Shown one piece after another: positions 35,898-51,155 of a stretch of DNA of 64,000 bases. Positions within the stretch are counted from its first letter, which is position 1. Each line of letters opens with the position of its first letter. The notes under the pieces were generated by a model. The model made no database searches, had not been told where the DNA came from, and saw nothing but the letters and a program-made list of their open reading frames with translations. The stretch comes from an uncultured Eubacteriales bacterium (lineage in GTDB: Bacteria; Bacillota; Clostridia; Peptostreptococcales; Anaerovoracaceae), in NCBI GenBank assembly GCA_900545135.1, contig UQXL01000004.1, positions 1,886 through 65,885 of the forward strand, given 5' to 3'. The translations under genes and the position numbers were made by a program.

Positions 35898-36461
35898 TTA
35901 CTGGCAGTGCAATGCCTCTATCAGCTCAGCTAAATTCTGATGAAACTTTCCTATATATATTCCATCTATGAAACGGTGGTTTACTTCGACGGAAATATGC
36001 AAAATTTTGCGTCCGCCCTCATCTGCGTATTTTCCCCAGGCTATATGCGGAATGGAATTGTCTTTTGCGCCTTGGCCGTCCAGATATTTTTCATTGGTGA
36101 GAGCCGTCATTTCAAACCATGGAGCGCAGGAAAAATAAATCAGCTCTTCCCCCTCTTCGTCCTCGCAAATGAAGCATTTCTGCGCCGCGCTCTTTTCAAC
36201 TGCCCTGCGGCAAAGTTCATCGAGGCCGCCGCCCAAGTCCATCGTAACTATGTGGAAGGTTTCCTTTCCTTTTTTGAGGTCGGTAAAGCTGGGTATCCTC
36301 TTATCCAGCCTATATATTTCTCCGTTCTCCACCGTATATGAAAAAGCTTCCACGCTGTTTACAGCTTCAGTGCAAAGGTAAACAAGGGCATAATAAAAGG
36401 ATATCCCCTTTTCTTTCGCATACCTGTATAGATTGGTTACGTCCTGCTTGAAGGTCACCAT
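35898..36461 (-). CDS. Chloramphenicol-acetyltransferase (CAT)-family protein, apparently lacking ~28 N-terminal residues
   Basis: The C-terminal ISVEVNHRFIDGIYIGKF aligns to the CAT catalytic region (IQVHHAVCDGFHVGR). The upstream in-frame sequence is CAT-like but is closed by a TAG. Confidence 0.6.
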   Translation of the reverse strand: MVTFKQDVTNLYRYAKEKGISFYYALVYLCTEAVNSVEAFSYTVENGEIYRLDKRIPSFTDLKKGKETFHIVTMDLGGGLDELCRRAVEKSAAQKCFICEDEEGEELIYFSCAPWFEMTALTNEKYLDGQGAKDNSIPHIAWGKYADEGGRKILHISVEVNHRFIDGIYIGKFHQNLAELIEALHCQ

Positions 36462-36591: not shown

Positions 36592-37464
36592 TCATTGCTC
36601 TTCATCATTAAATTCTTTTTCGTGTTCTCTGAAAAAATTGTAATACATCTTTACATTTTCAAGTTCCGTCCATCTTTTTACGCTCACCGGGCTTTGGTCC
36701 AGGTCATAGATTTTGGCTCCTTTTACCGCTAGTAAAAACGGCGAATGGGTGGCTATGATAAACTGACAGCCGAAAAATCTGGCGGAATTTTCTATATATT
36801 CTATAAGTTCCTTCTGTCTTTCGGGCGAAAGACTGTTCTCCGGCTCGTCCAGCAGGATAAGACCCGGGGGTTCCAGCTTCTGTACAAAATATTTAAAAGC
36901 GCTTTCTCCGTTGGAATGTTCGCGCACGTTGTCCATCACCTTTTCCCTGACATATTTGGACTGAGTCGTCCGCCTCGCCAGATTGACTTTTTTCAGCCTT
37001 TCATAGTCCTCCAGCGAAGACAGAGTAAAATCCGAATATTTGGCGTCCAAATAATCGGAAAGCAGCTCTTCTCTGCGGATATCTATGCCTTCATTCACAC
37101 ATCTCAGATTAAGCATGAAATCAAACACGTCGTCGCTGGTTATGACGCGGCTTTCTTCAGGTATCTGACTGAGCAAGCCATAGTCGCACATCTCTATGTA
37201 ATCTTCAAAGAAGCTGCTTCGGTTGTACAGCGTGTCTCTCTCAAGGCGCAGCGCCTCGCCTATGACGTTTAAAGCCGTCGTTTTGCCCGAACCGTTTCCG
37301 CCGCAGAGAATAGTTATATCGTCAAATTCCAGAGAAGAAAGACTTCTTTCGGAAAGGACGCGGAACGGATAAAAGCTGTCATAGCATGTGCGCTTTACTT
37401 CTTTCATTAGATATGTGTATTCTCTCTCCCTGTCCGGAAAAGAAAAGTAAGATAAATACCTCAA
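36592..37464 (-). CDS. Stand-alone ABC-type ATPase (AAA_21 / COG3910-like)
   Basis: Walker A GGNGSGKTT, Walker B LILLDEPENSLSP, an ABC signature-like region and the H-loop ATHSPF. Translationally coupled to the upstream gene. Confidence 0.6.
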   Translation of the reverse strand: MRYLSYFSFPDREREYTYLMKEVKRTCYDSFYPFRVLSERSLSSLEFDDITILCGGNGSGKTTALNVIGEALRLERDTLYNRSSFFEDYIEMCDYGLLSQIPEESRVITSDDVFDFMLNLRCVNEGIDIRREELLSDYLDAKYSDFTLSSLEDYERLKKVNLARRTTQSKYVREKVMDNVREHSNGESAFKYFVQKLEPPGLILLDEPENSLSPERQKELIEYIENSARFFGCQFIIATHSPFLLAVKGAKIYDLDQSPVSVKRWTELENVKMYYNFFREHEKEFNDEEQ

Positions 37465-38358
37465 TTAAAACTCCCCCTCTGCGGCAAGACCGGCAGCCGA
37501 ACGCTGTGAATCCGCTGCCGGACGCTGCGAATACCTCTCTATAAGGCCTTTTGCCCATTCCATCAGCAGTTCCGAAAGCCGGTGAAAATCAGCTCTGTCC
37601 TTTACTTCAGCACTTTCCCCACCAATTTTTCCTGCTTTTTCCGCTTCCCGGGCAAATCTTCCTGCTTCCCGGGCAAATCTCTCCGCTTCCTTGGCAAATC
37701 TTTCCGCCTCTCCCAGCTCCGCTATCTTTTTCTCAGGGCCGTCAAGAGAGTTTATCAGTTCTTCTCTCGTCTTTAAATAAACGCCTTCTTCGCGGAAATA
37801 CTCCGCTCTGAGCACGAACCCGGCATGTTTAAATAGACCCTGCAGGATTTCAGAGCTTTTTTCATGGACCATATTATGGACTAAGCTATGATATATATTG
37901 CAGGCGCCTGTGTGAGCTGCCCTCGCAGCGTCCTTCCTGCTTATGGAATTCCTCAGCTTTTCCAGGCTGCCAAATACGTCCCTCGTATCATAGCAAAACT
38001 GAAACAGATCTGCTTTGTCCCAATTTTCAAGTTCCCCCATGCCTGACACAAATCCGCATATAAGCCCACGCTCAGGCAGCGCTGAAATAGCTCCATCATA
38101 TTTCTCTAAATCAGAAGCAGAAACATTGTCTAAAATCAGCACTATGTCTATGTCGCTGTCTTCTCTGGCTTCTCCCCTGCCGCGGCTTCCCTGTATTCCG
38201 ATAAACTCCACTCTGCCGCCAAAAGTTTCAAGCATAAGAGCACAGTAGTTTTCCAGCCATTTCTCTATATCAGTCATCTCATCTCCTAAGGCTATACCGC
38301 CAATTCCCACATATTTTCCTTTACAGTTTATTTTAACATACTGCCTCTGGTTTTGCAT
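37465..38358 (-). CDS. Minimal nucleotidyltransferase (Pol-beta superfamily) domain protein with an internal tandem ERFAREAG-type repeat
   Basis: GIQGSRGRGEAREDSDIDIVLIL is a GS-X9-13-DxD NTase motif. The C-terminal helical domain contains AERFAKEAERFAREAGRFAREAEKAG. Confidence 0.6.
   Translation of the reverse strand: MQNQRQYVKINCKGKYVGIGGIALGDEMTDIEKWLENYCALMLETFGGRVEFIGIQGSRGRGEAREDSDIDIVLILDNVSASDLEKYDGAISALPERGLICGFVSGMGELENWDKADLFQFCYDTRDVFGSLEKLRNSISRKDAARAAHTGACNIYHSLVHNMVHEKSSEILQGLFKHAGFVLRAEYFREEGVYLKTREELINSLDGPEKKIAELGEAERFAKEAERFAREAGRFAREAEKAGKIGGESAEVKDRADFHRLSELLMEWAKGLIERYSQRPAADSQRSAAGLAAEGEF
37631..37710. repeat. About 3.3 tandem copies of a 24-bp unit (cttcccgggcaaatcttcctg-like) inside the NTase coding sequence
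   Basis: ccgcttcccgggcaaatcttcctg / cttcccgggcaaatctctccg / cttccttggcaaatctttccg. This is an in-frame 8-aa repeat. Confidence 0.6.
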
Positions 38359-39173: not shown

Positions 39174-39530
39174 TCATCCGCACAGCTTCTTATAGTTTTC
39201 CCCGAAGTCCATCATTGCGTCCAATATGGGCCTCATGCTCTCCCCCAGCTCCGACAGGGAATATTCAACTCTTGGCGGGACTTCGGCATATACAGTCCTT
39301 TTAACGATTCCGTCCGCTTCCATGGATCTGAGGCTGTCTGTCAGCACTTTCTGACTTATGCCTTCCAAAGATTTCTGCAATTCATTGAACCGACACGGTC
39401 TTTCCAGCAGATTGCGGAGAATGAGCAATTTCCATTTGCTTCCTATCAATGATACTGTAGTTGCCACAGGGCAGCTTGGCAGTTCTTCTTTTTTCTTCAC
39501 GGCAGTATCTCCCCTCTCTATTTTCAGCAT
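39174..39530 (-). CDS. HxlR-family transcriptional regulator (second copy)
   Basis: CPVATTVSLIGSKWKLLILRNL. Confidence 0.8.
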   Translation of the reverse strand: MLKIERGDTAVKKKEELPSCPVATTVSLIGSKWKLLILRNLLERPCRFNELQKSLEGISQKVLTDSLRSMEADGIVKRTVYAEVPPRVEYSLSELGESMRPILDAMMDFGENYKKLCG

Positions 39531-39741
39531 TGCATTAAAAATCTACTGTTACATTAAATTTTTACTATTGCATATTGGTCATTGCAATATAAATTTTTTT
39601 AAAAAATTTTCTCTCCCAATCCTCTGAATTCCAAAAAAGTCACAAAAAAGTAAGTATCCTCATAAAAAAATGCGTACTTGCGGCTATTTTACTGCGGCAA
39701 TAGAATGATAGCAGAAAATCAAAGTTAAGGAGGAACGAGCA

Positions 39742-40476
39742 TTGAACATTCAAACTTGCCTTGAAATACTGCGCCAGATCAAAGACGTTTCCTTTGCCAC
39801 GACGGACGAAAAAGGTATGCCACAGGTCCGCATCATCGATGTGATGCTTGTCGAAGACCGGAAGCTGTTTTTCTGCACAGCAAGGGGAAAAGATTTCTAC
39901 TGCCAGCTTGTCAGCTCCGGCAGCGTCGCCGTGGTCGGCATGAACAAGGATTATCAGATGGTGCGCCTCAGCGGAAAAGCCAAAAAGCTTACAGAGCAAA
40001 AGAAATGGATAGACCGCATATTCAGTGAAAATCCTTCCATGAACGACGTTTATCCCGGAGACATCCGCTATATACTGGAGCCGTTCTGCATAGAAAGCGG
40101 AGAAATTGAATTTTTCGACCTGGGCGTTTCGCCCATCTTCCGCCGGAAATTCTCAATGGATAAATCTCAAAAATGCGGTTTTCACATCACAGAAAGCTGT
40201 ATAGGCTGCGGAAAATGTCTGAAACTTTGTCCGCAAAAATGTATTGAAAGGGGAACGCCCTGCCGCATAAAACAGGAGCACTGTCTCCACTGCGGACTTT
40301 GCGCAAAGAACTGCCCTTTCCATCGTCATAGCCATAGTCCTCGGTCTGGCGCTGGGCGTCCTGATCAGCGAGTTTCAAAGAAGTTCCAAGCCTGTCATGG
40401 GCTTAGTAAACTTTGTCTACACCATACCGTCCATCTCACTGCTGGGATTTCTCATACCCTTTTCAGGCATAGGTGA
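39742..40476 (+). CDS. PNPOx-like FMN-binding domain fused to a 2x[4Fe-4S] ferredoxin domain. The native C-terminus is lost after ..CAKNCPF at about 40320, and the listed tail is junction read-through.
   Basis: The N-terminus is PNPOx-like. CIGCGKCLKLCP and CLHCGLCAKNCP are two CxxCxxCxxxCP motifs. The tail HRHSHSPRSGAG... overlaps the permease fragment in another frame. Confidence 0.6.
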   Translation: MNIQTCLEILRQIKDVSFATTDEKGMPQVRIIDVMLVEDRKLFFCTARGKDFYCQLVSSGSVAVVGMNKDYQMVRLSGKAKKLTEQKKWIDRIFSENPSMNDVYPGDIRYILEPFCIESGEIEFFDLGVSPIFRRKFSMDKSQKCGFHITESCIGCGKCLKLCPQKCIERGTPCRIKQEHCLHCGLCAKNCPFHRHSHSPRSGAGRPDQRVSKKFQACHGLSKLCLHHTVHLTAGISHTLFRHR

Positions 40477-40642
40477 CACGACCGCCGTCATCGCTCTGAC
40501 CGTATATGCCCTCTTGCCTATGGTCCGCAATACTTACGCCGGTCTGACCAACGTAAATCCCCTGCTGGTTGAAGCTGCCGCAGGTATGGGAAGCACCAAG
40601 TTTGAAGTACTGTACAAGAGCAAAATTCCGCTGGCATAGCCA
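40313..40642 (+). pseudogene. Internal fragment (~108 aa) of an OpuCB/OpuBB-type osmoprotectant ABC-transporter permease, lacking both ends
   Basis: The +1 frame reads ALSIVIAIVLGLALGVLISEFQRSSKPVMGLVNFVYTIPSISLLGFLIPFSGIGDTTAVIALTVYALLPMVRNTYAGLTNVNPLLVEAAAGMGSTKFEVLYKSKIPLA*, which is mid-protein BPD_transp_1 sequence with no start and a premature end. Confidence 0.6.
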
Positions 40643-41318
40643 GTCATCTTCGGCAGGTTTTGCTTACGACGGAAAACGCTTCAACAGATATTTCAGCGAT
40701 TTTGCGGAAAAGTACGGCTTCAGCGACATGTATACCGGAGGCTTTTATCCTTATGAAACACCGGAAGAACATTGGGCCTACTGGAGCCGCTATATAAAAA
40801 TTAACCGCTATGAAGACGCACCAAAGCCCGTATATGAAATGCTTCTGAGCCTTGTCAAAGACAAAGATTACTTCGTCATAACCACCAACGTAGACCACTG
40901 CTTTCAGAAAGCCGGCTTCGATAAGAGCAGATTGTTTTATACGCAGGGCGACTATGGTCCGTTTCAGTGTTCTGAGCCATGCTGCCAGAAGACCTATGAT
41001 AACGAAACGCAGATAGAGCGCATGGTTTCTGAGCAGTCAGAAATGAAGATACCATCAGAGCTCATACCAAAATGCCCTGTCTGCGGCAGACCCATGACCA
41101 TGAATCTCAGGTCAGACAGCCGTTTTGTCGAGGACGAGGGCTGGCACCGCGCTCTCAAGCGTTACGAATCGTTTCTGCAGAACCACAGAAAAGATCATGT
41201 TCTTTTCCTGGAGCTTGGCGTAGGCTACAACACCCCTGTCATCATCAAATATCCGTTCTGGCAGATGACAGCCGAAAATCCAAAATCGGTCTACGCTTGT
41301 ATCAATGAAAGGGAGTAA
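40569..41318 (+). CDS. SIR2-family protein (sirtuin fold with TTNVDH motif and Cys4 zinc site), 5'-truncated, so the GAGxS Rossmann motif is missing
   Basis: VITTNVDHCFQKAG aligns to the sirtuin TQNID..H..AG motif. CSEPCC...CPVCG is the zinc site, and LFLELGVGYNTPVI the C-terminal Rossmann strand. Only a TTG or internal ATG start is available, and the frame is closed 24 nt upstream. Confidence 0.55.
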   Translation: MKLPQVWEAPSLKYCTRAKFRWHSQSSSAGFAYDGKRFNRYFSDFAEKYGFSDMYTGGFYPYETPEEHWAYWSRYIKINRYEDAPKPVYEMLLSLVKDKDYFVITTNVDHCFQKAGFDKSRLFYTQGDYGPFQCSEPCCQKTYDNETQIERMVSEQSEMKIPSELIPKCPVCGRPMTMNLRSDSRFVEDEGWHRALKRYESFLQNHRKDHVLFLELGVGYNTPVIIKYPFWQMTAENPKSVYACINERE

Positions 41319-41396
41319 CCGGGAATATATCCTTTTTCGTTGTCAGACATTTTCAAAAAGTAAAAATATTATTTTTTTGAAACCGGGAGGGTGTAT

Positions 41397-42594
41397 GAAA
41401 ACGATAATCAGGACAGAATATCTGGAGCGAATCATTGAACTAAATCAGACTCCGGACATTAAAATTATTACAGGAATTCGCCGGGCAGGAAAGTCAGAAT
41501 TGATGCGGGCATATATTTCGTATCTGAAGAGTCATTTTGAAAACATCAATATTATCTTTATTGATTTTATGGATATGGAATATGAAGGGCTCAAAGAATA
41601 TCATGCTCTTCACACATATGTGGAAGAGCATTATCAGGCGGAAAAAACGAACTATGTTTTTGTGGACGAGGTCCAGATGTGTCCCAATTTTGAACTGGCA
41701 ATCAACAGCCTCTATTCGAAAAGAAAATATGATATTTATATTACGGGTTCCAATGCTTTTTTGCTGGGCGCAGAGTTGGCAACTTTATTTACCGGGCGTT
41801 ATATTGGAATCCATGTGTTCCCCTTTAGTTTCCGGGAATATTGTCAGTATTACAATGAGATTGACGACAAGGAGAAATTATTTGATGAGTATACGATAAA
41901 GGGAGGATTGGCAGGCTCTTATGCTTATAATACAGAAGCAGACATAATCCGCTATGTTAAGGAAGTCTATGAAACGATCGTTACAAGAGATCTTGTACAG
42001 AAATATTCTCTGACAGATACGCTGGTTTTACAGCGCCTGAGCGAGTTTCTTATGGACAACATCAGCAATCTGACTTCTCCAAATAAAGTCAGCCAGCTTA
42101 TGACAGCAAATAAAACAACTACCAACCATGTGACTGTCGGCAGATATATTAAGTATTTGTGCAATGCTTTTGTTTTTTACGATATAAAACGCTATGATAT
42201 TCGCGAAAAAAAATACCTTGGAAGCTCTGAAAAATTTTATCTGTGTGATACAGGTATCAGGTATGCGGTTCTGGGAAGTAGGAACATGGATTACGGAAGG
42301 GTATATGAGAATATATTCTGCATGGAACTGCTTCGTCGTGAGTATTCGGTATATGTTGGGAAACTGTACCAGAAGGAAATTGACTTTGTAGCACAAAAGG
42401 GAGATGAGAAAATATACATTCAGGTCAGTGACAATATTTCGGATCACAAAACCCTTGAAAGGGAATGCCAGCCATTACTGCAAATCCGTGATGCTTATCC
42501 CAAGAAAATTATTGCACGGACACAACACCCGAAATACAGTTACGAAGGAATCGAGATTTGTGATATTGTTGACTGGCTATTGCAGGAGGGATAA
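41397..42594 (+). CDS. AAA+ ATPase of the COG1373 type (AAA_14 plus DUF4143)
   Basis: A gggagg RBS precedes the ATG at 41397. Contains a P-loop (TGIRRAGKSELM) and Walker B (YVFVDEVQ), with a DUF4143-like C-terminal half. Confidence 0.7.
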
Positions 42595-42596
42595 AA

Positions 42597-43388
42597 ATGA
42601 ACACACTAGATCAGCTTTTAGAACTCAATGACATACTGCTCGATGAAATGCCCCAGTACAGACAGCAGGCCCTGCTTTTCGGAAAGGACCGTCAGAATCA
42701 GTGGAATCTTTTCCGTTCCCTCGTCAACATCAGGCCTGCCATGCCTGCCAGCCGTGAATTTATAGAACTGCAGGACGCGCTGCTGCAAGGTGAAATCGAG
42801 AAAAAAGGCATAACGAACGTCAGCGATTTGACTCCAGTGCATGATAATCTCTATCTTTGGCATGGAGATATAACGACGCTCAAGGCCGGAGCCATCGTAA
42901 ACGCCGCCAACAGCGGCCTCACCGGCTGCTATCACCCGTGTCACGGCTGCATAGACAATGCGATTCACACATACGCCGGAGTGCAGCTGAGGCTGGAATG
43001 TGCGCAGCTGGTGGAAAAACAGGGTTTCCCCGAACCTACCGGCCGCGCAAAGATCCCCGGCGCATATAATCTGCCGTGCGAGCACGTAATCCATACGGTC
43101 GGTCCTATAATCTCAGGCGCGCTTTCACAGGAAGACCGCAGACTGCTGGCTTCATGCTACCGCTCATGTCTCGATGTTGCTGTAGAAAATCATATGAGCA
43201 GCATCGACTTTTGCTGTATTTCCACGGGAGAATTTCATTTTCCGCCGGAGGAAGCGGCAAATATCGCCCTGAGAACCGTAATGGATTACAAAAAAGAAAA
43301 CAACTGCTCCGTAGATGTGATATTCAATGTGTTTACAGACAGAGACTATAACATCTATAAGCAGCTGATAAACTGTGATTTTTGCTGA
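42597..43388 (+). CDS. Macro-domain protein with a ~70-aa N-terminal extension (protein-ADP-ribose hydrolase type)
   Basis: AIVNAANSGLTGC..GCIDNAIHTYAG..IHTVGP matches the macro-domain consensus (IVNAAN..L.GGGV..AIH.AAG). Its length and extension are those of the sirtuin-linked macro proteins. Confidence 0.75.
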   Translation: MNTLDQLLELNDILLDEMPQYRQQALLFGKDRQNQWNLFRSLVNIRPAMPASREFIELQDALLQGEIEKKGITNVSDLTPVHDNLYLWHGDITTLKAGAIVNAANSGLTGCYHPCHGCIDNAIHTYAGVQLRLECAQLVEKQGFPEPTGRAKIPGAYNLPCEHVIHTVGPIISGALSQEDRRLLASCYRSCLDVAVENHMSSIDFCCISTGEFHFPPEEAANIALRTVMDYKKENNCSVDVIFNVFTDRDYNIYKQLINCDFC

Positions 43389-43418
43389 CTGCCGGTATAA
43401 AAAGCGGCAGAAAGCGCT

Positions 43419-43994
43419 TTATCCCAGGATTCCCAGATGCTCCAGGAGGATCTTTATTCCTATGAGAATCAGTATGGTTCCTCCTGCCAGCGTCGCTTTA
43501 TTTTTATATTTAGCGCCGAATTTATTTCCTATCACTACACCGATGGCTGACAGCATGAACGTGGTCACTCCTATGATCAGGACAGCCATCTCTATCTCAA
43601 CTCTGAGAAAGGCGAAAGAAATGCCTACTGCCAAAGCGTCGATGCTGGTGGCCACAGCGAGAACGAGAACTTCTCTCAGCTTAAGCTTTATCTCTTTGAC
43701 ATCGCAGCTGGCGGCTTCATCGTCCTTCACCACATCCAGAATCATCTTTCCGCCGATAAAGGCCAAAAGAGCAAAGGCGATCCAATGATCTACAGAAACT
43801 ATGTACTCTTCGAACTGTTTTCCCAGGAAATATCCTATAAGCGGCATGAGCGCCTGAAAGCCACCGAAAAATATTGCTATCGTAAGAATGTTTTCTGCTG
43901 TCGCTCTTCTCATACACAGCCCTTTGCATATAGACGCCGCGAAAGCATCCATAGAAAGGCCTATGCCAATCATCAGTACCTCAAAAAAACCCAT
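43419..43994 (-). CDS. mntP: Manganese efflux pump MntP
   Basis: MGFFEVLMIGIGLSMDAFAASI.. with duplicated DUF204 halves. The listed ORF extends to 44039. Confidence 0.75.
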   Translation of the reverse strand: MGFFEVLMIGIGLSMDAFAASICKGLCMRRATAENILTIAIFFGGFQALMPLIGYFLGKQFEEYIVSVDHWIAFALLAFIGGKMILDVVKDDEAASCDVKEIKLKLREVLVLAVATSIDALAVGISFAFLRVEIEMAVLIIGVTTFMLSAIGVVIGNKFGAKYKNKATLAGGTILILIGIKILLEHLGILG

Positions 43995-44103
43995 ATTGCC
44001 TCCCAGCCAAATAGCGCAAAACACTTTATTATTGTACAACAGAATACGCCGGGAGGCAATAAAATATTATCTTGCGCTTATCTCTAGCGCCTATCTCGCA
44101 ATA

Positions 44104-46695
44104 TTATCTTGCGCTTATCTTAAGCGCTTCGCCGTCTGAATCTATCAGAACGGTCTGTCCGTCTACGACGTCGCCGCTTATGATCATGGAAGCTATTTCA
44201 GTCTCTATATTCTTCTGCAGATAACGCTTTACAGGTCTTGCTCCGTAGTGAGCGTCGTAAGCCTGGTCAGCGATGAAGCTCTTGGCTTCCTCAGTAAGTT
44301 CAAGGCTCATATCCCTGTCTTTAAGTTTCTTTTCAAGACCGACAAGGGACAAGCCGATTATATCCATGATCTGAGTCTTGGTGAGCGGGCTGAAGAGAAT
44401 TATGTCGTCTATCCTGTTGAGGAACTCAGGTCTGAAATAGTTTTTAAGCTGTCCCGTCACCCTCTCCTCCACTTCGGAAGAGATTTTACCGTCTTCCTGC
44501 ATGTTCTCGATCAGGTCGCTGCTTCCGATGTTGGAAGTCATTATGACGATGGTGTTCTTAAAGTCTACCGTTCGTCCCTGATTGTCCGTCAGGCGTCCGT
44601 CGTCCAAAAGCTGGAGCAGGATATTAAAAACGTCGGGATGAGCTTTCTCTATCTCATCGAACAGGATAACGCTGTAAGGTTTACGACGGACGGCTTCCGT
44701 CAGCTGTCCTCCTTCGTCGTAGCCCACGTATCCCGGAGGCGCACCTACAAGTCTGGATACTGAATGTTTTTCCATGTACTCGGACATGTCTATCCTTATC
44801 ATGTTTTTCTCAGTATCAAACAGGGCTTCTGACAGCGCCTTGGCCAGCTCCGTCTTTCCTACGCCTGTAGGTCCGAGGAAGATGAATGAACCTATAGGCC
44901 TGTTTTCATCTTTCAGTCCTGCTCTCGCTCTCAGTATGGCTTCGGAAACAGCCTGAACTCCGTCCTCCTGACCTATTACTCTCTTGTGAAGTATGTCGGG
45001 AAGTCTGAGCAGCTTTTCTCTTTCGCTTTCCACCAGCTTGCTTACAGGGATCCCTGTCCAGCCGGAAATGACCTCGGCGATTTCTTCTTCCGTGACTTCT
45101 TCCTTGAGAAGTCTTTCTTCATCGGCTTTGGCGGCAGCAGACTTTTCTTCCTCCAGCTTTTTCTCCAGCTCCGGCAGCGTGCCGTATTTGAGCTGCGCAA
45201 GCTTCTCCAGATCGTAATTTCTTTCCGCCTCTTCCATCTGGTGGCGCACTTCTTCTATCTGCTGTTTCGTCGCTTTTGCCTCGGAAATAGTCTTTTTCTC
45301 AGTCTCCCATTTTGCTCTCATCAGAGCGTCCTCTTCTTTCAGAGATGCCAGTTCTTTTTCGAGAGCTTCCAGCCTTGCCTTGGAGCCTTTGTCCGTTTCT
45401 TTGCCGAGAGCTTGTTTTTCAATTTCCAGCTGCATTATCTTTCTTGAGATCTCATCCAGCTCGGCTGGCATGCTGTCGATCTCCGTCCTTATTCTGGCGG
45501 CAGCTTCGTCCATCAGGTCTATGGCCTTGTCCGGCAGGAATCTGTCGCTTATATACCTGTCGGAAAGCGTTGCGCAGGCGATGAGCGCTCCGTCGGTGAT
45601 CCTTACGCCGTGGTGTATCTCAAATCTCTCCTTGAGTCCTCTCAGTATGGAAATGGTATCCTCTACCGTCGGCTGATCGACAAGGACTTTCTGGAATCTT
45701 CTCTCCAGCGCCGCGTCTTTTTCGATGTACTTTCTGTACTCGTCCAGCGTAGTCGCGCCTATGCAGTGCAGCTCGCCCCTTGCCAGCTTAGGCTTGAGCA
45801 GGTTGCCTGCGTCCATGGAGCCTTCCGTTCTGCCGGCTCCCACGATATTGTGTATCTCGTCTATGAACAGGATTATTCTGCCCTCTGATTTTTCCACTTC
45901 GTTGAGTACGGCCTTCAGCCTTTCCTCGAATTCTCCCCTGAACTTGGCTCCTGCGATCAATGCTCCCATGTCGAGGGCGAAGATGGTCTTGTCTTTAAGA
46001 CCCTCAGGAACATCGCCGTTTAAGATTCTCTGGGCCAGCCCCTCTACGACTGCCGTCTTGCCTACGCCAGGCTCTCCGATGAGGACAGGATTGTTCTTGG
46101 TTCTCCTGGAAAGTATCTGTATGGCATGTCTGATCTCCGCATCTCTTCCTATTACAGGGTCGAGCTTGCCGTCTCTTGCCATCTGTACCAGATCTCTGCC
46201 GTATTTAGTTAGGGCGTCGTAGTTATCCTCTGGATTCTGGCTGGTGACTCTCTGGTTTCCCCTTACTTTTGAAAGGGCTTCAAGAAATTTATCCTTGGTT
46301 ATGCCGAACTTGGCGAAAATCCTGCTGCTCGGCGTATTCTTTTCCTCCAGCAAAGCCAGATACATGTGTTCTACGCTGACGTACTCGTCCTTAAACTGCT
46401 CGGCTATCTTTTCGGAATTCATCAGTATCTGCGAAAGTCTTCTCGATGAATACATGTTGTCGGCAGCTCCCGATACTTTAGGCAGTTTTTCCAGCTCTTC
46501 CTGCAAATCCGCGATGACCGAAGTTACGTCTATGTTGCTGTATTGCAGCAGCTTAGGAATCAAACCGTCTTTCTGCATCAGCAGCGCCAGATGCAGATGT
46601 TCCCCTTCCAGCATCTGATGTCCCTCAGAAATAGCTATGTTCTGACATTCAACTATAGCTGACTGCGCATTCTGTGTATATTTTTCTATGTTCAT
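44104..46695 (-). CDS. clpB: ATP-dependent chaperone ClpB
   Basis: 863 aa with two AAA+ modules, a middle coiled-coil, and GxxGVGKT Walker A twice. Confidence 0.95.
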
Positions 46696-46772
46696 GATAT
46701 CACCCCTTTTTAGTCTTTCTCGATGTTTACATTTTTATTTTACACCTGCGGAAAACAAATGTAAAGCATTTT

Positions 46773-46799
46773 TTAGCACTCGTCTCAAAAGAGTGCTAA
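46773..46799. promoter_or_regulatory. CIRCE element (HrcA operator), TTAGCACTC-N9-GAGTGCTAA, upstream of clpB
   Basis: A perfect consensus read directly, 78-104 nt upstream of the clpB start. Confidence 0.8.
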
Positions 46800-46844
46800 T
46801 AATTTTACAATTATTACTTACCCATTATTATTGTCTTTAATCAT

Positions 46845-46870
46845 TAAAAAAGCCGTTATTTTTAACGGCT
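46845..46870 (-). terminator. Intrinsic terminator after the C_GCAxxG_C_C gene, also usable from the plus strand
   Basis: agccgtta-tttt-taacggct with a flanking A-run and T-run. Confidence 0.6.
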
Positions 46871-46910
46871 CTTAAAATATTTTCTAATTCATTTCTTGCA
46901 ATTCTCCCAA

Positions 46911-47330
46911 TCAGTTACGGCCGCTTCCTGGCAGTATTGCTTCCAGCTTTTTGGCCATCTCCTCCACTATCAGATGACACGGATTTTCAAATCCCGGTAT
47001 CTGCAGCCGCTGCAGTTCGCAGCAATGAAGCGTGCTAAAATCGCTCATGAAAGATTCAGTCAAATCGCATATCATCCTATACCCATCCATATTATCCACA
47101 TCGTTTTGCCCCTCCTTTGCCGTCATCAGCCCTATCATGCCTGCGGCAACTGTAAATGCTCCGCAGCAGGACTGTTCGCTCTGCATGCCAAGCCCCATGA
47201 CAGAAAACATCTTTCTAGCTTCTTCCGGCAAATTCAGTTTGTAGTATTCGTTGCACGCGTTATACATCGCTTCCGCGCAGGACAAATCTGTTCCGACGTG
47301 ATAAAAGTTCACCAGTTCATATAGCTTCAT
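46911..47330 (-). CDS. C_GCAxxG_C_C family putative redox protein
   Basis: SCAEAM.., MGLGMQSEQSCCGAFTVAAGMIGL and TLHCCEL fit the family pattern. A ggggagg RBS precedes the ATG at 47330. Confidence 0.6.
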   Translation of the reverse strand: MKLYELVNFYHVGTDLSCAEAMYNACNEYYKLNLPEEARKMFSVMGLGMQSEQSCCGAFTVAAGMIGLMTAKEGQNDVDNMDGYRMICDLTESFMSDFSTLHCCELQRLQIPGFENPCHLIVEEMAKKLEAILPGSGRN

Positions 47331-47443
47331 ATCTTTTTCCTCCCCGGCTTGTCTCACAGTTTCTGAGCTCACTCAAGTTCCCTGCTTACTGCTATCTCGG
47401 CCGCTCTGCAGCAATAGCTCTGTCTTGCGGCAATAGACCTATC

Positions 47444-48166
47444 TTAAAGAAGCAGTTCTATGAAGAAACCCACGATCGGCGTGAGGATTTTGCCCGTCAC
47501 ATTTAATATGATGAGCAGCATCAATATGTAAAATCCGTTGTTATAGACGGTATAATACCAGCTGTATCTGTCCAGCCTGAAAATCTGCGTCACTATACCG
47601 AAGCCGTCCAGCGGCGGCACAGGCAGCAGATTGAAGACCATCAGCACCAGATTTATGCTCATCATGTAGTAGAGTATCCAGAACAGTATTTCCGTAAAGC
47701 TTCCGCTGTAGATATAACCTCCGCCGGACCTTACCAAAAGCCTTATCGCTCCTGCGGAGAGAGCTGCTATGATAAAATTGGTGACGACTCCAGCCAGTGA
47801 AACCATGATCTCATCCACTCTTCTGTGCTTATAATAGGACGGATTTATCTGTACAGGCTCGCCCCAGCCGAAGCCGGCAAAAAACAGAGCGAGAAATCCT
47901 ATGGGGTCTATATGCTTCAAAGGATTAAGGGAAAGCCTTCCCTGAAGCTTAGGCGTAGGGTCTCCCAGCCAGTAGGACACGAATCCGTGTGCCGCTTCGT
48001 GAAAGGTCAGTCCTATGATGATTCCAGGGAGCATCATCAGCTGATCTATCAGCCACTGCCCTATGTCTCTCGTCGATGATAGCATGTTGTTTATCAAAAG
48101 CACGCATATTATTATCAGTATGGCAGGATTTACATTTCTGAACATTCTTCTGAAATTTTCTTTCAT
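47444..48166 (-). CDS. Site-2-protease-family (M50) membrane metalloprotease
   Basis: HEAAHG is the HExxH motif, and LNPLKHIDP... is the second motif. Confidence 0.7.
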   Translation of the reverse strand: MKENFRRMFRNVNPAILIIICVLLINNMLSSTRDIGQWLIDQLMMLPGIIIGLTFHEAAHGFVSYWLGDPTPKLQGRLSLNPLKHIDPIGFLALFFAGFGWGEPVQINPSYYKHRRVDEIMVSLAGVVTNFIIAALSAGAIRLLVRSGGGYIYSGSFTEILFWILYYMMSINLVLMVFNLLPVPPLDGFGIVTQIFRLDRYSWYYTVYNNGFYILMLLIILNVTGKILTPIVGFFIELLL

Positions 48167-48277
48167 CTCTTTCCCCTTTTGTAAAATATTAAATTTATTT
48201 TAGCACATTTTCACCTTGGTTTAAATAATATATTGTAAGAAAAAGGGCTTACTTGCCTGACTGAAAGGTGGTTTTTT

Positions 48278-48637
48278 ATGAATACATCTCTAGTTTGCAT
48301 TGACGTTTATACGGTAAACGAAGGAGATACGCTCCATTCCATAGCAGAAAAATACGATCTGCCCGTCAGCTTACTTATGAGAGTCAACGGTATCGACAAT
48401 CCGTACAATCTCCAGATAGGACGTCGCCTATGCATTCCCGGCACTGAAGATCAGCTTCCTCAGCCGCCGCAGACTCCGGAAAGATGCAGCACTACTCACA
48501 CCGTAGCTCCCGGCGATACCCTGTACTTAATAGCTAAAAAGCACGGCATAAAACTGGATAATCTTATGAGGGCAAATCCGAGCATCGACCCTTACAATAT
48601 GCTGATAGGAACCGAGCTCTGTATCCCTGCGGAATAA
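48278..48637 (+). CDS. Tandem LysM-domain protein
   Basis: There are two LysM repeats (YTVNEGDTLHSIAEKYDL.., HTVAPGDTLYLIAKKHGI..). Confidence 0.75.
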   Translation: MNTSLVCIDVYTVNEGDTLHSIAEKYDLPVSLLMRVNGIDNPYNLQIGRRLCIPGTEDQLPQPPQTPERCSTTHTVAPGDTLYLIAKKHGIKLDNLMRANPSIDPYNMLIGTELCIPAE

Positions 48638-48641
48638 TTTT

Positions 48642-48710
48642 ATTTCGCAGACAATTTGCATTTCTGCGAAACAATTTTATTTCGCAAAGCAATTTGAATC
48701 TCTGCGAAAT
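48642..48710. repeat. Two tandem ~30-bp palindromic units (tttcgcaga-N11-tctgcgaaa and tttcgcaaag-N12-ctctgcgaaa) between convergent genes
   Basis: Read directly. The stems are AT-rich and there is no U-run. Confidence 0.4.
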
Positions 48711-48966
48711 AGTTTGTGTTCCAGAAATATGACATAAGTCTTGGAAATCAAAAAAGAGTGACTGTCACAAAATGGACCGACCTCCAACCGTTAGATTTAT
48801 GCTCTAACTTTTGAATGTCGGTTCACAAGCAGCCGCTCTTTTGTTTTTCATTAGTCCTATGATTGGCAATGCTCCGGCAGACAGCGGCCTCTGCGGTCAT
48901 CAGCTCGTTGCAGGTGCGATGACTCACGCCTATGACCGTCAGAGACGGGCCAGCGGCAAACCGAAA

Positions 48967-49770
48967 TCAATAGGTAAATCCCGTATCAGGATCGGAGTAT
49001 TCCCTGAGCCTGGTCTGATAAGCGTCCATCGCGGCTTCCTCATAGGCCAGCTTTGGTTCGCTTACTTCCAGAACATTTTTCAGAAACCACTTGGTAAACA
49101 GAGGGTTTAAAACGAGGAACGGCCCGATTACGTAAGTACAGAAAAAGTTGTTTATCCTTATTCCCTCTTCTTTCGTCTCGGGGTTCAGTCCCACTCCCCT
49201 CTCAGTCATAAATAAGTATTTATCGGAAATGTTTCCGTAGCCGTAGCCGAATACGCTCTTAAAGCCGACGATTTTTATCGTCTCGCATGGTTGCTCTTCG
49301 GCGTCGTTTCCGCTACCGGCAGCCGAGTCTCCGGCAGCTTCGTCTCTGGCAGCTCCGCCGCCGTCAGGCAAAAAGCTTCCCAGATAGAGAGAATTAAATC
49401 TCTTTCTCGCCTTTCTTCTGGCGGAAAAATCCAGTATTCCAAGACCGTCGCATACTTTTTTATCTTCTTCGATTATCTCCCTGGCGAAAATTTCTCCCGC
49501 ATTGCCAGTCACCAAAAATGCTGTTCCCTGGCCGATGCGCTCCCGGATAACGTCACTGTATTTTGAGAGAGCCTCTATGGCCAGCATCTGGCCCTTTTCA
49601 GTCGTAGTTCCCATATATATGAGGTCCGGTTTTTCCTTTGCAAACAGAGGCTCGTCCTTGAGGCTGGTGTTGACTATTTCTGCTTCAGGAATGCAGCGGC
49701 TCAGATAGGTGACGTTGGCCAGATCACCGTACAGGTTGCAGATTTCCGGGAAAAGAACTTCTATCTTCAT
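48967..49770 (-). CDS. gatD: Lipid II isoglutaminyl synthase glutaminase subunit GatD (CobQ-type GATase)
   Basis: GLGILDF.., IVGFKS.FGYGYGN and a C-terminal His region. Overlaps murT by 4 nt. Confidence 0.75.
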   Translation of the reverse strand: MKIEVLFPEICNLYGDLANVTYLSRCIPEAEIVNTSLKDEPLFAKEKPDLIYMGTTTEKGQMLAIEALSKYSDVIRERIGQGTAFLVTGNAGEIFAREIIEEDKKVCDGLGILDFSARRKARKRFNSLYLGSFLPDGGGAARDEAAGDSAAGSGNDAEEQPCETIKIVGFKSVFGYGYGNISDKYLFMTERGVGLNPETKEEGIRINNFFCTYVIGPFLVLNPLFTKWFLKNVLEVSEPKLAYEEAAMDAYQTRLREYSDPDTGFTY

Positions 49771-51155
49771 GCCGTCTCACCTCTTTCCTCTATGGCCTTT
49801 TCAACGTTTTTAGCTACGTTGTTGCACAGCGTTATGGAATCTGTGCCGTAAAAGATATATATGTCTGTGCCGCTTTCAAGTTTGAGGGCTTTCGGCGAAT
49901 CCAGCTCCCTCTCGACGAAAGATATTCTGTCGTCGCCTATTCCTGCCATCTTGAGCCTCAAGTAATAGTCCTTGGCTCTCGGGCCGGTGACCACTATATT
50001 CTTAATGTTTTCCCTGTTGAGAAATTCAAAGTCCGCATCGTATAGCCAGCAGACGTTTTCTGACCAGTGCTTGCTGTCTCCGAGGCTGTTCATCATAAGT
50101 ATGAGCTCTTTGTCTCCAGGTCTTCCAGCCACGTAATCAAAGGCTCTTGAAGCGCCGAGGGCGTTCTTGTCTTTGGCCATCTGCTTTACGATGCGATGTC
50201 CGCCGGCTTCTTTGACGTCGAACCTGCTCTTGACAATCTCTATCTGCTCAAGGAGTTCCTTTATTCTCTCGCGGCTGTAGCCCAGCTCCCTGAACAGCGA
50301 AACGACGGCTACCACGTTATATATATTGAATACGCTGTCGTTTAAAAGCCTGTATTTCGCCGTCTCTCCGCCGTCTTCCACTTCTATGGTCATATTCTCC
50401 AGGTCAGCGTTTTTTCCCTTGTAATCACATTCAGGCGACTTGAAGCCGCAGTCCGGACAATATGCTTTTCCTATATGATGGTATCTGAGATGTTCATATT
50501 TCAAAATGCTGCTGCACTCAGGACATACCCGTAGGTCGTTGATGAGATTGACACATTCCTTGACGTCTGTATCGAGGCTTTCTATGCCGAAATACTTCCT
50601 CTCGTTTTCCGGCGCTATGCCGCAGGCGATGAGATCGTCGCCGTTGATTATGAGCCTGGTTTCCGGCGGCATTTCCTCCGTCAGAATACGGGCTATAAAC
50701 TCCGGATGTCCGTTTCTCATGATCGAATCTCTCGTCAGGTTGTTTATCAGCAGAAGCTCAGGTTTCAGGGCAGGAAAAAGCAGCGGTGCAGAACGCTCGT
50801 CCATCTCCAGCAGCGCCGTGTCGTACTTGGCTTTTCCGAAAATTCCTGCGCCCATGATGAGGGCTGTGGCTATGCCTGTATTTATGTTGGAGCCGAGACT
50901 GTTGTTAAGCACACGCCTGCCGTCTGCCTTGAACATATCTATGGCCAGATTGCAGACAGTGGTCTTGCCGTTGGTTCCTGTCACGCCGATTATGGCCTTC
51001 GGCTTTTTTATTATCTTAAGGAAATCGGGGCACAGCTTGATTGCCACCACCCCCGGGAAATTAGTTCCGTTATGTCTTGTTATTCTCAGCGCTATGACCG
51101 ACAGCTTGGCCGCCCACAGCGCGATAAAAAATCTTATTTTGTTCATTATTCTCAA
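49767..51155 (-). CDS. murT: Lipid II isoglutaminyl synthase ligase subunit MurT (Mur-ligase family plus DUF1727)
   Basis: IGVTGTNGKTT and a Cys4 zinc ribbon (CPECS...CPDCG). Confidence 0.85.
   Translation of the reverse strand: MRIMNKIRFFIALWAAKLSVIALRITRHNGTNFPGVVAIKLCPDFLKIIKKPKAIIGVTGTNGKTTVCNLAIDMFKADGRRVLNNSLGSNINTGIATALIMGAGIFGKAKYDTALLEMDERSAPLLFPALKPELLLINNLTRDSIMRNGHPEFIARILTEEMPPETRLIINGDDLIACGIAPENERKYFGIESLDTDVKECVNLINDLRVCPECSSILKYEHLRYHHIGKAYCPDCGFKSPECDYKGKNADLENMTIEVEDGGETAKYRLLNDSVFNIYNVVAVVSLFRELGYSRERIKELLEQIEIVKSRFDVKEAGGHRIVKQMAKDKNALGASRAFDYVAGRPGDKELILMMNSLGDSKHWSENVCWLYDADFEFLNRENIKNIVVTGPRAKDYYLRLKMAGIGDDRISFVERELDSPKALKLESGTDIYIFYGTDSITLCNNVAKNVEKAIEERGETA

Follow-up and report, generated by a model that had tools for sequence, protein, structure and literature searches.

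Class M sirtuins (SirTM) carry QG in place of HG, and Asn118, Gln137 and Arg192 are the catalytic residues in the numbering of the S. pyogenes enzyme, SpySirTM (PMC4518038). Zinc-dependent macrodomains (Zn-Macro) are recognized by a NAAN motif, a Cx(4)HxC Zn-loop and an N-terminal three-helix extension (PMC11490716). Lone SirTM/macro pairs have been published, and the absence of GcvH-L and LplA2 beside such a pair is not unusual; the listed carriers include Firmicutes families such as Lachnospiraceae and Clostridiaceae (PMC4518038, PMC11490716), and the literature gives the targets of these pairs as unknown (PMC11490716). The ATPase family PDC-S01 is a phage-defence candidate whose antiviral activity is pending validation (PMC12988326).

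In this study, a 64-kb stretch of DNA (64,000 nucleotides, hereafter the window) from an uncultured gut Bacillota species was analysed. A preliminary description of the letters had placed a sirtuin, an ATPase and a macrodomain gene on one strand, and the ORF list agrees: a SirTM-class sirtuin, an AAA_14/DUF4143 ATPase and a 263-aa zinc macrodomain are all encoded on the plus strand (Table 1). Judging from sequence comparison, the region is very probably a decayed lone SirTM/Zn-macrodomain ADP-ribosylation module, in which the ATPase gene is a passenger cassette.

Table 1. Features of the SirTM/macrodomain region, in positions of the window
Feature	Position	Strand	Basis or remark
HxlR-family regulator	39174..39530	-	Pfam HxlR E 4e-32; divergent from the PNPOx/ferredoxin gene
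PNPOx_N + 2x[4Fe-4S] flavo-ferredoxin gene (fdx)	39742..40320	+	Pfam PNPOx_N and Fer4
Opu/choline-type ABC permease gene scrap, codons ~27-131	40322..40639	+	BPD_transp_1 positions 21-106 of 184
SirTM (class M sirtuin) remnant, putative pseudogene	40643..41314	+	corresponds to residues 39-261 of the 287-aa orthologue P0002
Cassette left-flank remnant	41315..41348	+	aligns with L091 just 5' of the distal operator; absent from L001
Proximal palindromic operator	41349..41394	+	TTTTCAAAAA 41350-41359 / TTTTTGAAA 41374-41382; ribosome-binding site GGGAGG 41385-41390
AAA_14/DUF4143 ATPase with PD-(D/E)XK-type domain, PADLOC candidate PDC-S01, 399 aa	41395..42594	+	Pfam, PADLOC
Right junction	42583..42599	+	ATPase gene end (CAGGAGGGATAA) fused to macro ribosome-binding site/start at CAGGA(GG) microhomology
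Zinc-dependent macrodomain (Zn-Macro, protein-ADP-ribose hydrolase), 263 aa, intact	42597..43388	+	Pfam, NCBIfam, PDB

The sirtuin remnant and its macrodomain partner

The mechanical sirtuin ORF runs from 40569 to 41318 (249 aa), and sirtuin homology proper begins only at 40643/40644. The Pfam SIR2 match was marginal (E 4.8e-5, 23.8 bits vs a cut-off of 24) and the match to S. pyogenes SirTM (PDB 5a3a) was strong (E 5.4e-63, query 25-248 vs residues 46-270 of the 303 in the chain). The motifs TTNVD, TQGDYG, CSEPCC and CPVC were all found in the ORF; TTNVD (Asn), TQGDYG (Gln) and NLR (Arg) aligned to ITTNAD, IQGEYG and NKRN of SpySirTM, and these Asn, Gln and Arg columns were invariant in an alignment of full-length SirTM homologues (n=11). 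Both the class M assignment and the TTNVDH motif with a Cys4 zinc site, as first described, are thus upheld by the structure match and by the retained QG, Cys4 and catalytic Asn, Gln and Arg. The alignment to the SirTM structure, proposed in the preliminary description, gave a divided answer, since the catalytic set and the Cys4 site are kept and the Rossmann start is absent.

Compared with the full-length, 96%-identical orthologue P0002, residues 1-38, which hold the GAGxS NAD loop (GAGAGL), and the last 26 residues (262-287) are absent from the sirtuin. Both missing termini are conserved in 11/11 of the full-length homologues aligned, and a complete Rossmann fold, i.e., the N-terminal GAGxS loop together with the C-terminal strand and helix, is not present. 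The SIR2 N-terminus had been suspected to be replaced by a transporter scrap, and a permease fragment does abut the sirtuin homology; the 3' truncation had escaped notice. The homologue alignment also revealed a Leu-to-Pro change at a nearly invariant site of the remnant, and strain L172 carries an 11-nt deletion within it. By these comparisons, the sirtuin ORF is a predicted pseudogene, truncated at both ends and dead, and loss of ADP-ribosyltransferase activity is predicted because the NAD loop is missing. A dN/dS comparison with the sister locus L001, intended to reveal relaxed selection on the remnant, came out low (0.13; 16 synonymous and 9 non-synonymous changes, a total of only 25 substitutions that is too few to separate recent truncation from persisting selection). 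Therefore, either the truncations are recent or the fragment is still under selection.

The macrodomain gene lies 1.28 kb downstream of the sirtuin on the same strand. Its product matched Pfam Macro (E 5.6e-36), the NCBIfam equivalog NF003163 'protein-ADP-ribose hydrolase' (336 bits vs a cut-off of 272) and SauMacro (PDB 5kiv, E 3.3e-76; 5kiv and 8rsl both stand at E ~1e-76). NAAN was found at residue 102 and the Cx4HxC Zn-loop, CYHPCHGC, at residue 111, and the 5kiv alignment starts at residue 14, so that the protein has the motifs and the N-terminal extension of a Zn-Macro. These matches agree with the early view of a ~263-aa macrodomain protein with an N-terminal extension as the SirTM partner, and the gene is the canonical zinc-macrodomain partner of SirTM and is intact. 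In the assembly collection, the index lists this exact protein in 974 blocks, and it occurs in at least 600 contigs; among 8 strain contigs that span the gene whole, all retrieved by exact protein match, there were 0 nucleotide differences.

Neighbours, sister locus and junctions

The neighbourhoods of 80 SirTM loci were surveyed among the matches listed, all from species other than that of the window. A HxlR homologue in the same position and orientation was present in 43/80 of these listed loci, fdx adjoined macro/SirTM in 32/80, and macro adjoined sirTM in 59/80 and in L001. In Clostridia, the pair usually sits within a conserved operon of divergent HxlR, PNPOx-ferredoxin, macro and SirTM, and HxlR is the conserved first element of this clostridial module. 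An AAA_14 gene within ~8 kb was found at none of the 80 loci among the matches listed; across these loci sirtuin plus macro recurs, and sirtuin-ATPase-macro does not. The reported absence of GcvH-L and LplA2 also stands, as no GCV_H or BPL_LplA_LipB was seen among the genes called within +/-10 kb at the identical locus L002.

The upstream genes bear traces of deletion as well. The fdx gene has lost its last ~8 codons and the ORF continues out of frame to 40476 with a 51-aa nonsense tail; its homologues are 203-205 aa long and end in ...CP(V/A)xA(V/I)EKR. The permease scrap, to which TIGR03416/ProW-type models also matched, was probably left between two deletion joints. Transporter genes occupy this place in relatives: the gene order in L041 is fdx, a 512-aa permease-SBP, an ABC ATPase, macro and sirTM, and in L001 the 3' end of an OpuCA-like ABC ATPase gene lies directly upstream of sirTM. 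Neither the permease scrap nor the ATPase has a second copy elsewhere in the 64-kb window.

L001, which is 96-97% identical in nucleotides, encodes an intact 287-aa SirTM (P0002) followed by a minus-strand mazE-like gene and macro, and it supplies the intact SIR2 5' end that the preliminary description had hoped to find in a relative. Window 40643-41314 corresponds to L001 469-1140 (96.3% identical) and window 42583 onward to L001 1606 onward, with no L001 counterpart for 41315-42582; the ATPase cassette (1.27 kb) occupies the place of the sirTM 3' end and the mazE-like gene of L001. The 2-nt gap noted earlier between ATPase and macro is real (stop ending at 42594, macro ATG at 42597). When the right junction was compared with L001 (CCAGGAGGTAAAAATG) and with cassette ends (TTGCAGGAATAAAAAATGGTGCGCAATAAACAT...), the usual 20-nt right-end motif and sirTM 3' copy of the cassettes were found to be missing, and the tight spacing has the appearance of a microhomology deletion joint.

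The ATPase cassette and its interpretation

The mechanical ATPase ORF spans 41305-42594, and the true start is the ATG behind the GGGAGG ribosome-binding site, which is common to all homologues. The protein matched AAA_14 (E 5.7e-33), DUF4143 (E 6e-19) and PADLOC PDC-S01 (PDLC04787, E 1.4e-148 over 30-427), with Walker A GIRRAGKS and Walker B VFVDE; of the nuclease motif, EIDF was found, but members of this subclade have IQVS where (D/E)xK would be expected. When the upstream regions of 17 cassettes were aligned, all relatives proved to have kept the distal operator and a TTGCAT-N17-TATAAT promoter, both of which are deleted here. A promoter scan ahead of the ATPase gave no convincing promoter, and related cassettes elsewhere come with a promoter and operators of their own. 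Of the representative strain types, 4/7 (~14/23 contigs) carry a +G frameshift after 42204, the ORF is intact in the window and in ~9/23 contigs, and fragmented products of 101-275 aa occur in the cluster. Homologues at 84-95% identity are spread over many unrelated contexts, e.g., between the CCA-adding enzyme gene and proS, or beside DUF4132 and GntR genes. The nearest relatives (at least 85% identity) recur next to sirTM genes or next to fragments of the sirTM 3' end, and therefore the juxtaposition is non-random, though apparently positional. Taken on its sequence, the ATPase gene appears to be a horizontally spread, inserted cassette that is unrelated to the pair and is no operon partner. 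Searching plasmids with the cassette (blastn, distant mode) returned only a 99-nt weak match to an Acinetobacter plasmid, and the 20-nt right-end motif had 0 matches in a scan of viral contigs; nothing therefore points to a phage or a plasmid as the vehicle.

Several genomes have arrays of ATPase and Schlafen-type cassettes at the 3' end of sirTM; behind every cassette come a conserved motif of ~20 nt (AAAATGGTGCGCAATAAACAT) and a duplicate of the final 55 sirTM codons (codons 233-287, beginning exactly at the Asn233 codon). No integrase or recombinase was found in or beside the arrays of L091, L079, L092-L095 and L100. It is possible, though in our view rather unlikely, that the sirTM 3' end is a dedicated docking site for recombinase-less, promoter-bearing single-gene cassettes stacked into arrays, whose cargo would be either a PDC-S01 ATPase-nuclease or a Schlafen/AlbA_2-HATPase_c_4 protein, and that the window is a degraded example. 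If true, these would be small cassette arrays of a new kind, which could be mobilised in trans or, homing-like, by the PD-(D/E)XK ATPase itself. An extra sirTM-like match in L007, located 4.6 kb downstream, was not counted as an array, being of 25 aa, placed after redox genes and accompanied by no cassette. The redox block of L007 comprises two glutathione peroxidases, a flavodoxin, a MarR regulator, a radical SAM enzyme and a nitroreductase.

The adjacency of the three genes could be read in other ways. If the ATPase and Schlafen-type cassettes were functionally tied to SirTM, having been inserted beside it because they make use of ADP-ribosylation or regulate it, the window would hold a broken SirTM-plus-accessory-ATPase system, and cassettes do lie directly 3' of intact sirTM in L091, L097, L079 and L042, with a macro gene following them in L084 and L093. 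However, the cargo varies (AAA_14/DUF4143 or SLFN_AlbA_2/HATPase_c_4), each cassette has its own promoter, the same ATPase subclade is found at unrelated sites with the junction motif still attached (L085-L090), and most SirTM loci are cassette-free (0/80 with the ATPase and 2/80 with the Schlafen type among the matches listed). Duplication of the sirTM 3' end is what insertion leaves behind and not a mark of an operon, and we consider such a functional tie improbable. An assembly chimera or sequencing artefact deserves next to no credence: although four abrupt junctions lie inside 2.3 kb, and the metagenome contig L094, which equals the window at 100% to ~41430 and then falls to ~83%, could be chimeric, identical junctions were recovered at 99.7-100% identity in 9 independently assembled metagenome/MAG contigs, as long as 431 kb, whose samples and sources (ENA, JGI, NCBI MAG) differ.

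We regard as very improbable the proposal that the three genes form a functional NAD+-dependent, defence-like ATPase system, with SIR2 as the effector, the AAA_14/DUF4143 protein as sensor or nuclease and the macrodomain as antagonist. The genes are co-directional and tightly spaced, the ATPase matches a defence candidate, and its nearest relatives are often near sirTM or macro (L084, L091, L093, L097), all of which would suit such a system. But the SIR2 ORF has neither the NAD loop nor its C-terminus, the close ATPase-macro spacing is that of a probable deletion joint, and the ATPase is promoter-less here and frameshifted in many strains; moreover, where sirTM is intact (L091, L097), the cassette is self-promoted and separated by sirTM 3' duplications. 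A SIR2-defence assignment was dropped because neither the SIR2 nor the macro ORF matched any PADLOC family. Of the two possibilities left by the preliminary description, the degenerate SirTM-type operon stands, and the uncharacterised NAD+-dependent ATPase-associated system does not, given the apparently dead SIR2, the lack of a promoter and the 0/80 loci with the ATPase among the matches listed.

For the decayed SirTM/Zn-macrodomain module, four rearrangement scars emerge from the comparisons, and an ancestral order may be proposed. The ancestral order would have been divergent HxlR, PNPOx-ferredoxin, an Opu-type ABC transporter operon, sirTM, a short variable slot and macro. A ~0.1-kb deletion has fused the ferredoxin gene 3' end to permease codon ~27, and a ~2-kb deletion from permease codon ~131 into sirTM codon 38 has removed the GAGxS NAD-binding loop. 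The 1.27-kb PDC-S01-type cassette stands where the sister lineage has the final 26 sirTM codons and the mazE-like gene; it has lost its promoter and distal operator by deletion between the two operator repeats, and its right end is joined by microhomology to the macro ribosome-binding site. As a consequence, no ADP-ribosyl 'writer' would be made, and the Zn-macro 'eraser' would be the sole intact enzyme, its transcription depending entirely on read-through from the HxlR-controlled ferredoxin promoter. The ATPase would be a decaying, hitch-hiking passenger, neither sensor nor partner of SIR2 or macro. Some observations weigh against this reading: the low dN/dS of the remnant, its retained catalytic Asn, Gln and Arg and Cys4 site, the intact ATPase ORF of the window and of ~9/23 contigs, and the recurrence of the nearest ATPase relatives next to sirTM.

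Comparison with described systems

The window has little weight alone, being in all likelihood a pseudogenised case of a writer/eraser pair already described, together with a passenger gene, and it cautions that SIR2/ATPase/macro adjacency can be a deletion scar and not a system. The clostridial HxlR/PNPOx-[4Fe-4S]/Zn-Macro/SirTM operon nominates a candidate substrate or partner and a redox-sensing regulator for the lone pairs, and the cassette arrays at the sirTM 3' end offer a handle on the spread of the very abundant, uncharacterised PDC-S01 genes.

Among the closest described systems is the lone or 'minimal operon' SirTM/Zn-Macro pair (Rack et al. 2015, PMC4518038; Ariza et al. 2024, PMC11490716), with which the locus shares the class M motifs (QG for HG, Asn/Gln/Arg catalytic set, Cys4 module), the Zn-Macro with NAAN, Cx4HxC Zn-loop and N-terminal three-helix extension, the single strand and the lack of GcvH-L and LplA2. 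Unlike that pair, the sirtuin here is truncated at both ends and is predicted not to bind NAD+ via the Rossmann GAGxS loop; sirTM precedes macro and is parted from it by 1.28 kb of foreign DNA, whereas the known pair is an abutting macro followed by sirTM, and a transporter scrap separates the pair from its conserved ferredoxin partner. The extended SirTM operon of S. aureus and S. pyogenes (GcvH-L, Zn-Macro, SirTM, LplA2, OYE + LLM) has the same writer/eraser families and also a redox link, which is represented here by a PNPOx-type flavoprotein with two [4Fe-4S] and HxlR in place of OYE + LLM, but GcvH-L and LplA2 are absent within +/-10 kb. SIR2-based defence systems (Thoeris ThsA, DSR1/2, SIR2-HerA, SIR2-pAgo, SPARSA) likewise have a SIR2-fold gene beside an ATPase gene; in contrast, the SIR2 here is of class M, an ADP-ribosyltransferase family and not an NADase effector, has SpySirTM, an ADP-ribosyltransferase, as its closest structure, has no PADLOC match and appears to be a dead gene, and the ATPase is neither HerA nor STAND nor pAgo. 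The ATPase shares with PDC-S01 (COG1373, AAA_14 + DUF4143 PD-(D/E)XK; PMC12988326, PMC3424549) a full-length match, Walker A/B motifs and the form of a single-gene horizontal unit, and differs from PDC-S01 generally in being promoter-less, fused at its 3' end to the macro ribosome-binding site and frameshifted in many strains. Like genomic islands and integron-like arrays, the cassettes of related loci are placed serially at a gene 3' end, each with a 55-codon sirTM copy; unlike them, they are single genes of 1.3-1.7 kb with no integrase seen, and the window has lost these hallmarks.

The sirtuin remnant and the zinc macrodomain gene

The three co-directional open reading frames of the preliminary description were recovered exactly by an ORF check (Table), with each assignment upheld. 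The first frame barely registered with Pfam SIR2 (23.8 bits, cut-off 24), and was matched by the Streptococcus pyogenes class M sirtuin SpySirTM (PDB 5a3a, E 5.4e-63). It shows the hallmarks of this class (PMC4518038), i.e., TTNVD with the Asn118 equivalent, TQGDYG with Gln instead of the catalytic His, NLR with the Arg192 equivalent, and a retained Cys4 zinc module; the proposed sirtuin fold with TTNVDH motif and Cys4 site is thus confirmed, as class M. Of the points proposed for checking against a SirTM structure, the Asn is in place, the His is replaced by that class-typical Gln, and the Rossmann start is gone. The third frame scored 336 bits with the NCBIfam equivalog NF003163, 'protein-ADP-ribose hydrolase' (cut-off 272), was matched by SauMacro (5kiv, E 3e-76), and encodes NAAN and the Cx4HxC Zn-loop (CYHPCHGC), the defining features of Zn-Macros (PMC11490716); by these features the macro-domain protein is a textbook zinc macrodomain. 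The middle frame contains AAA_14 and DUF4143 (Pfam) and matched the PADLOC candidate PDC-S01 (E 1.4e-148).

Coordinates of the features discussed
Feature	Location	Remarks
Sirtuin, AAA_14/DUF4143 ATPase, zinc macrodomain (in order)	window 40569-43388	all same strand
Segment shared with sister locus L001	window 40643-41314; L001 469-1140	96.3% identity
Segment shared with L001	window 42583-51146; L001 1606-10177	96.6% identity
ATPase segment and the L001 segment it replaces	window 41315-42582; L001 1141-1605	L001: sirTM 3' end plus mazE/AbrB-like gene on opposite strand
Remaining proximal operator copy	window 41349-41394	
Real ATPase start	window 41395	ATG, preceded by GGGAGG ribosome-binding site
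IQVS after EIDF in ATPase	window 42359-42370	residues 328-345
Divergent HxlR gene and PNPOx_N/2x[4Fe-4S] gene	window 39174-40320	beside macro/sirTM module; loci L004-L083
Divergent HxlR regulator	window 39174-39530	faced by ferredoxin promoter
AAA_21/AAA_15 ATPase gene	window 36592-38358	- strand
Nucleotidyltransferase (NTP_transf_2/Polbeta) gene	window 35898-36461	
Conserved clostridial cluster, examples	L015 6646-8768; L074 6607-8738	
Cassette arrays 3' of sirTM	L091 3200-7313; L094 1-3192; L079 1866-4667; L042 4935-7617; L084 1674-4505	L092/L095: just after ATPase gene
Redox-stress block after sirTM	L007 9085-13447	Lachnospiraceae MAG
Window-L094 comparison	window 41230-42700; L094 1-1480	

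A protein search returned a 287-aa orthologue, P0002, 96% identical to the sirtuin remnant. The orthologue lies on contig L001, where macro, mntP, clpB and further genes follow in synteny with the window. DNA alignment gave the two segments of the Table and no matching segment beyond them, so that two parts of sirTM are missing from the window: codons 1-38, with the GAGAGL NAD-binding loop, and codons 262-287. All 11 full-length homologues aligned conserve both stretches, and the alignment also shows a Leu-to-Pro change in the remnant at a nearly invariant position; the gene is broken at both ends. The break abuts, on its 5' side, a 318-nt fragment (about codons 27-131) of a choline/ProW-type ABC permease, and this fragment and the L001 comparison bear out the earlier suggestion of a 5'-clipped SIR2 gene whose GAGxS start was replaced by a transporter scrap. 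The intact sirTM of L001 is directly preceded by the 3' end of an OpuCA-like ABC ATPase, and a more distant genome (L041) has the order fdx, 512-aa permease-SBP, ABC ATPase, macro, sirTM; the scrap therefore represents the remains of a transporter operon that once adjoined the locus and was cut down by two deletions. One of these also clipped the PNPOx-ferredoxin gene (fdx), which lost its last ~8 codons and gained a 51-aa out-of-frame tail. Against L001, dN/dS was 0.13 for the remnant (16 synonymous, 9 non-synonymous) and 0.37 for macro (14 synonymous, 19 non-synonymous); from the former value, sirTM seems to have been inactivated recently compared with the time at which the two lineages diverged, the numbers being small.

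The ATPase gene as an inserted cassette

A recurrent sirtuin-ATPase-macro arrangement, as had been envisaged, was not found: the 80 SirTM loci listed from other species-representative genomes gave no ATPase match (tblastn, E 1e-5), and macro adjoins sirTM in 59 of them. Close ATPase relatives, at 84-95% identity, abound in gut metagenomes and occupy unrelated contexts, such as between the CCA-adding enzyme gene and proS, or beside DUF4132 and GntR genes. Their aligned upstream regions share a TTGCAT-N17-TATAAT promoter between two palindromic operators, TTTCAAAAA...TTTTTGAAA, which marks them as self-contained units with their own promoter. This promoter is strong and sigma-70-like, and the two flanking palindrome copies, TTTCAAAAA-N13-15-TTTTTGAAA (L084-L106, about 150 nt before the ATPase starts), are likely repressor operators, possibly autoregulatory. 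In the window ~100 nt with the distal operator and the promoter are gone, apparently through a deletion that ran from one operator repeat to the other. A CAGGA(GG) microhomology links the final two codons of the ATPase gene to the ribosome-binding site of macro, and the 2-nt spacing noted before, itself confirmed, is a deletion joint. The ATPase thus reads as an insertion rather than a partner of sirtuin or macro. Of the two alternatives offered earlier, the degenerate SirTM operon stands, with both sirtuin ends lost; an NAD+-dependent ATPase-associated system is not supported, given the 80 loci, the unrelated contexts and the promoter carried elsewhere. The PD-(D/E)XK lysine position reads IQVS in this ATPase subclade, and the nuclease domain may be inactive or have a variant motif.

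Members of the ATPase subclade nearest the window (at least 85% identity) recur at sirTM 3' ends or beside sirTM 3' fragments (L091, L092, L094, L095, L097, L100, L113, L153). Each such cassette terminates in a ~20-nt motif, AAAATGGTGCGCAATAAACAT, followed by a diverged sirTM copy (codons 233-287) running from exactly the Asn233 codon to the stop. Schlafen/AlbA_2-HATPase_c_4 cassettes carry the same motif and fragment in L079 and L091, and are followed by a shorter sirTM fragment in L042; in L084 the motif follows both cassettes without a sirTM copy. At non-sirTM sites (L085-L090) the ATPase subclade still carries AAAATGGTGCGCAATAAACAT and a few sirTM bases. Each cassette has a single gene, for a PDC-S01 ATPase or a Schlafen/AlbA_2-HATPase_c_4-wHTH protein. 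The arrays can be read as descending from one founding junction that homologous recombination then spread, or as a dedicated cassette system, possibly self-mobilising. No recombinase or integrase was seen in or near them (L091, L079, L092-L095, L100), the viral contigs scanned held no AAAATGGTGCGCAATAAACAT, and a plasmid search returned no copy of the ATPase cassette.

The clostridial gene neighbourhood

Among the 80 clostridial SirTM loci listed, the commonest architecture was macro, sirTM (20), with divergent hxlR, fdx, macro, sirTM in 17 and divergent hxlR, macro, sirTM in 12; an HxlR gene occurred in 43 and a PNPOx_N + 2x[4Fe-4S] gene in 32. By gene order, SirTM/Zn-Macro in Clostridia usually sits in a conserved cluster of divergent HxlR, PNPOx_N + 2x[4Fe-4S], macro and sirTM. 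The targets of lone pairs are unknown according to PMC11490716, in which no mention of 'ferredoxin' or 'pyridoxamine' was found, and our literature search found no paper tying SirTM to HxlR, ferredoxin or pyridoxamine; a candidate for the target or partner of such pairs is the flavo-ferredoxin. The L007 block, composed of a glutathione peroxidase gene twice, a flavodoxin, a MarR regulator, a radical SAM enzyme and a nitroreductase, fits an oxidative-stress role of the module.

Elsewhere in the window, an AAA_21/AAA_15 ATPase gene adjoins a nucleotidyltransferase gene, and the two resemble a pair of the toxin-antitoxin or abortive-infection type. The nucleotidyltransferase product is called at 270, 281 or 297 aa depending on strain, with an (A/G)ERFA(K/R)EA repeat near the C-terminus in the window's copy. 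Beyond the pair lie a CAT (chloramphenicol acetyltransferase family) gene and a small RelA_SpoT gene.

Population evidence and relation to known systems

In the assembly collection an identical macro protein occupies 974 index blocks, with at least 600 contigs counted, and it was present on all 23 long contigs examined; the window's gene arrangement was seen in seven of seven representative places shown. These representatives and two further contigs align to the window at 99.7-100%, and macro had zero nucleotide differences in the eight contigs spanning it whole (seven of which were retrieved by exact protein match; the ninth stops inside the gene). A +G frameshift splits the ATPase in four of the seven representative types, which stand for ~14 of the 23 contigs; the sirTM remnant of one type is shortened by an 11-nt deletion, and ATPase products of 101-275 aa also occur in the protein cluster. 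L094 is 100% identical to the window across the sirTM/cassette junction and ~35 nt into the ATPase gene (to about 41430), then abruptly ~83%, from either allelic recombination inside the gene or chimeric metagenome assembly.

Of the writer/eraser pair only the eraser gene is intact in the window, and the ATPase gene has no promoter of its own there and carries a frameshift in many strains. Any expression of Zn-Macro would come by read-through from the ferredoxin promoter, and the protein, as an orphan enzyme, may hydrolyse Asp/Glu-linked ADP-ribose of other origin, to which the ATPase would add nothing; Zn-Macros of lone pairs remove Asp/Glu-linked ADP-ribose on PARP1 in vitro (PMC11490716). 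The reported lack of GcvH-L and LplA2 holds for the genes called within +/-10 kb in L002, the identical locus, and is ordinary, because lone SirTM/Zn-Macro pairs, with carriers including Lachnospiraceae and Clostridiaceae, are already described (PMC4518038). Like this locus, these pairs lack GcvH-L and LplA2; unlike them, it has a broken sirTM. PDC-S01 consists of one gene, encoding an ATPase fused to a PD-(D/E)XK domain; it is widespread and, as a defence candidate, still unvalidated (PMC12988326, PMC3424549). The locus thus represents a known type of module in decay, accompanied by a passenger whose type is known as well.
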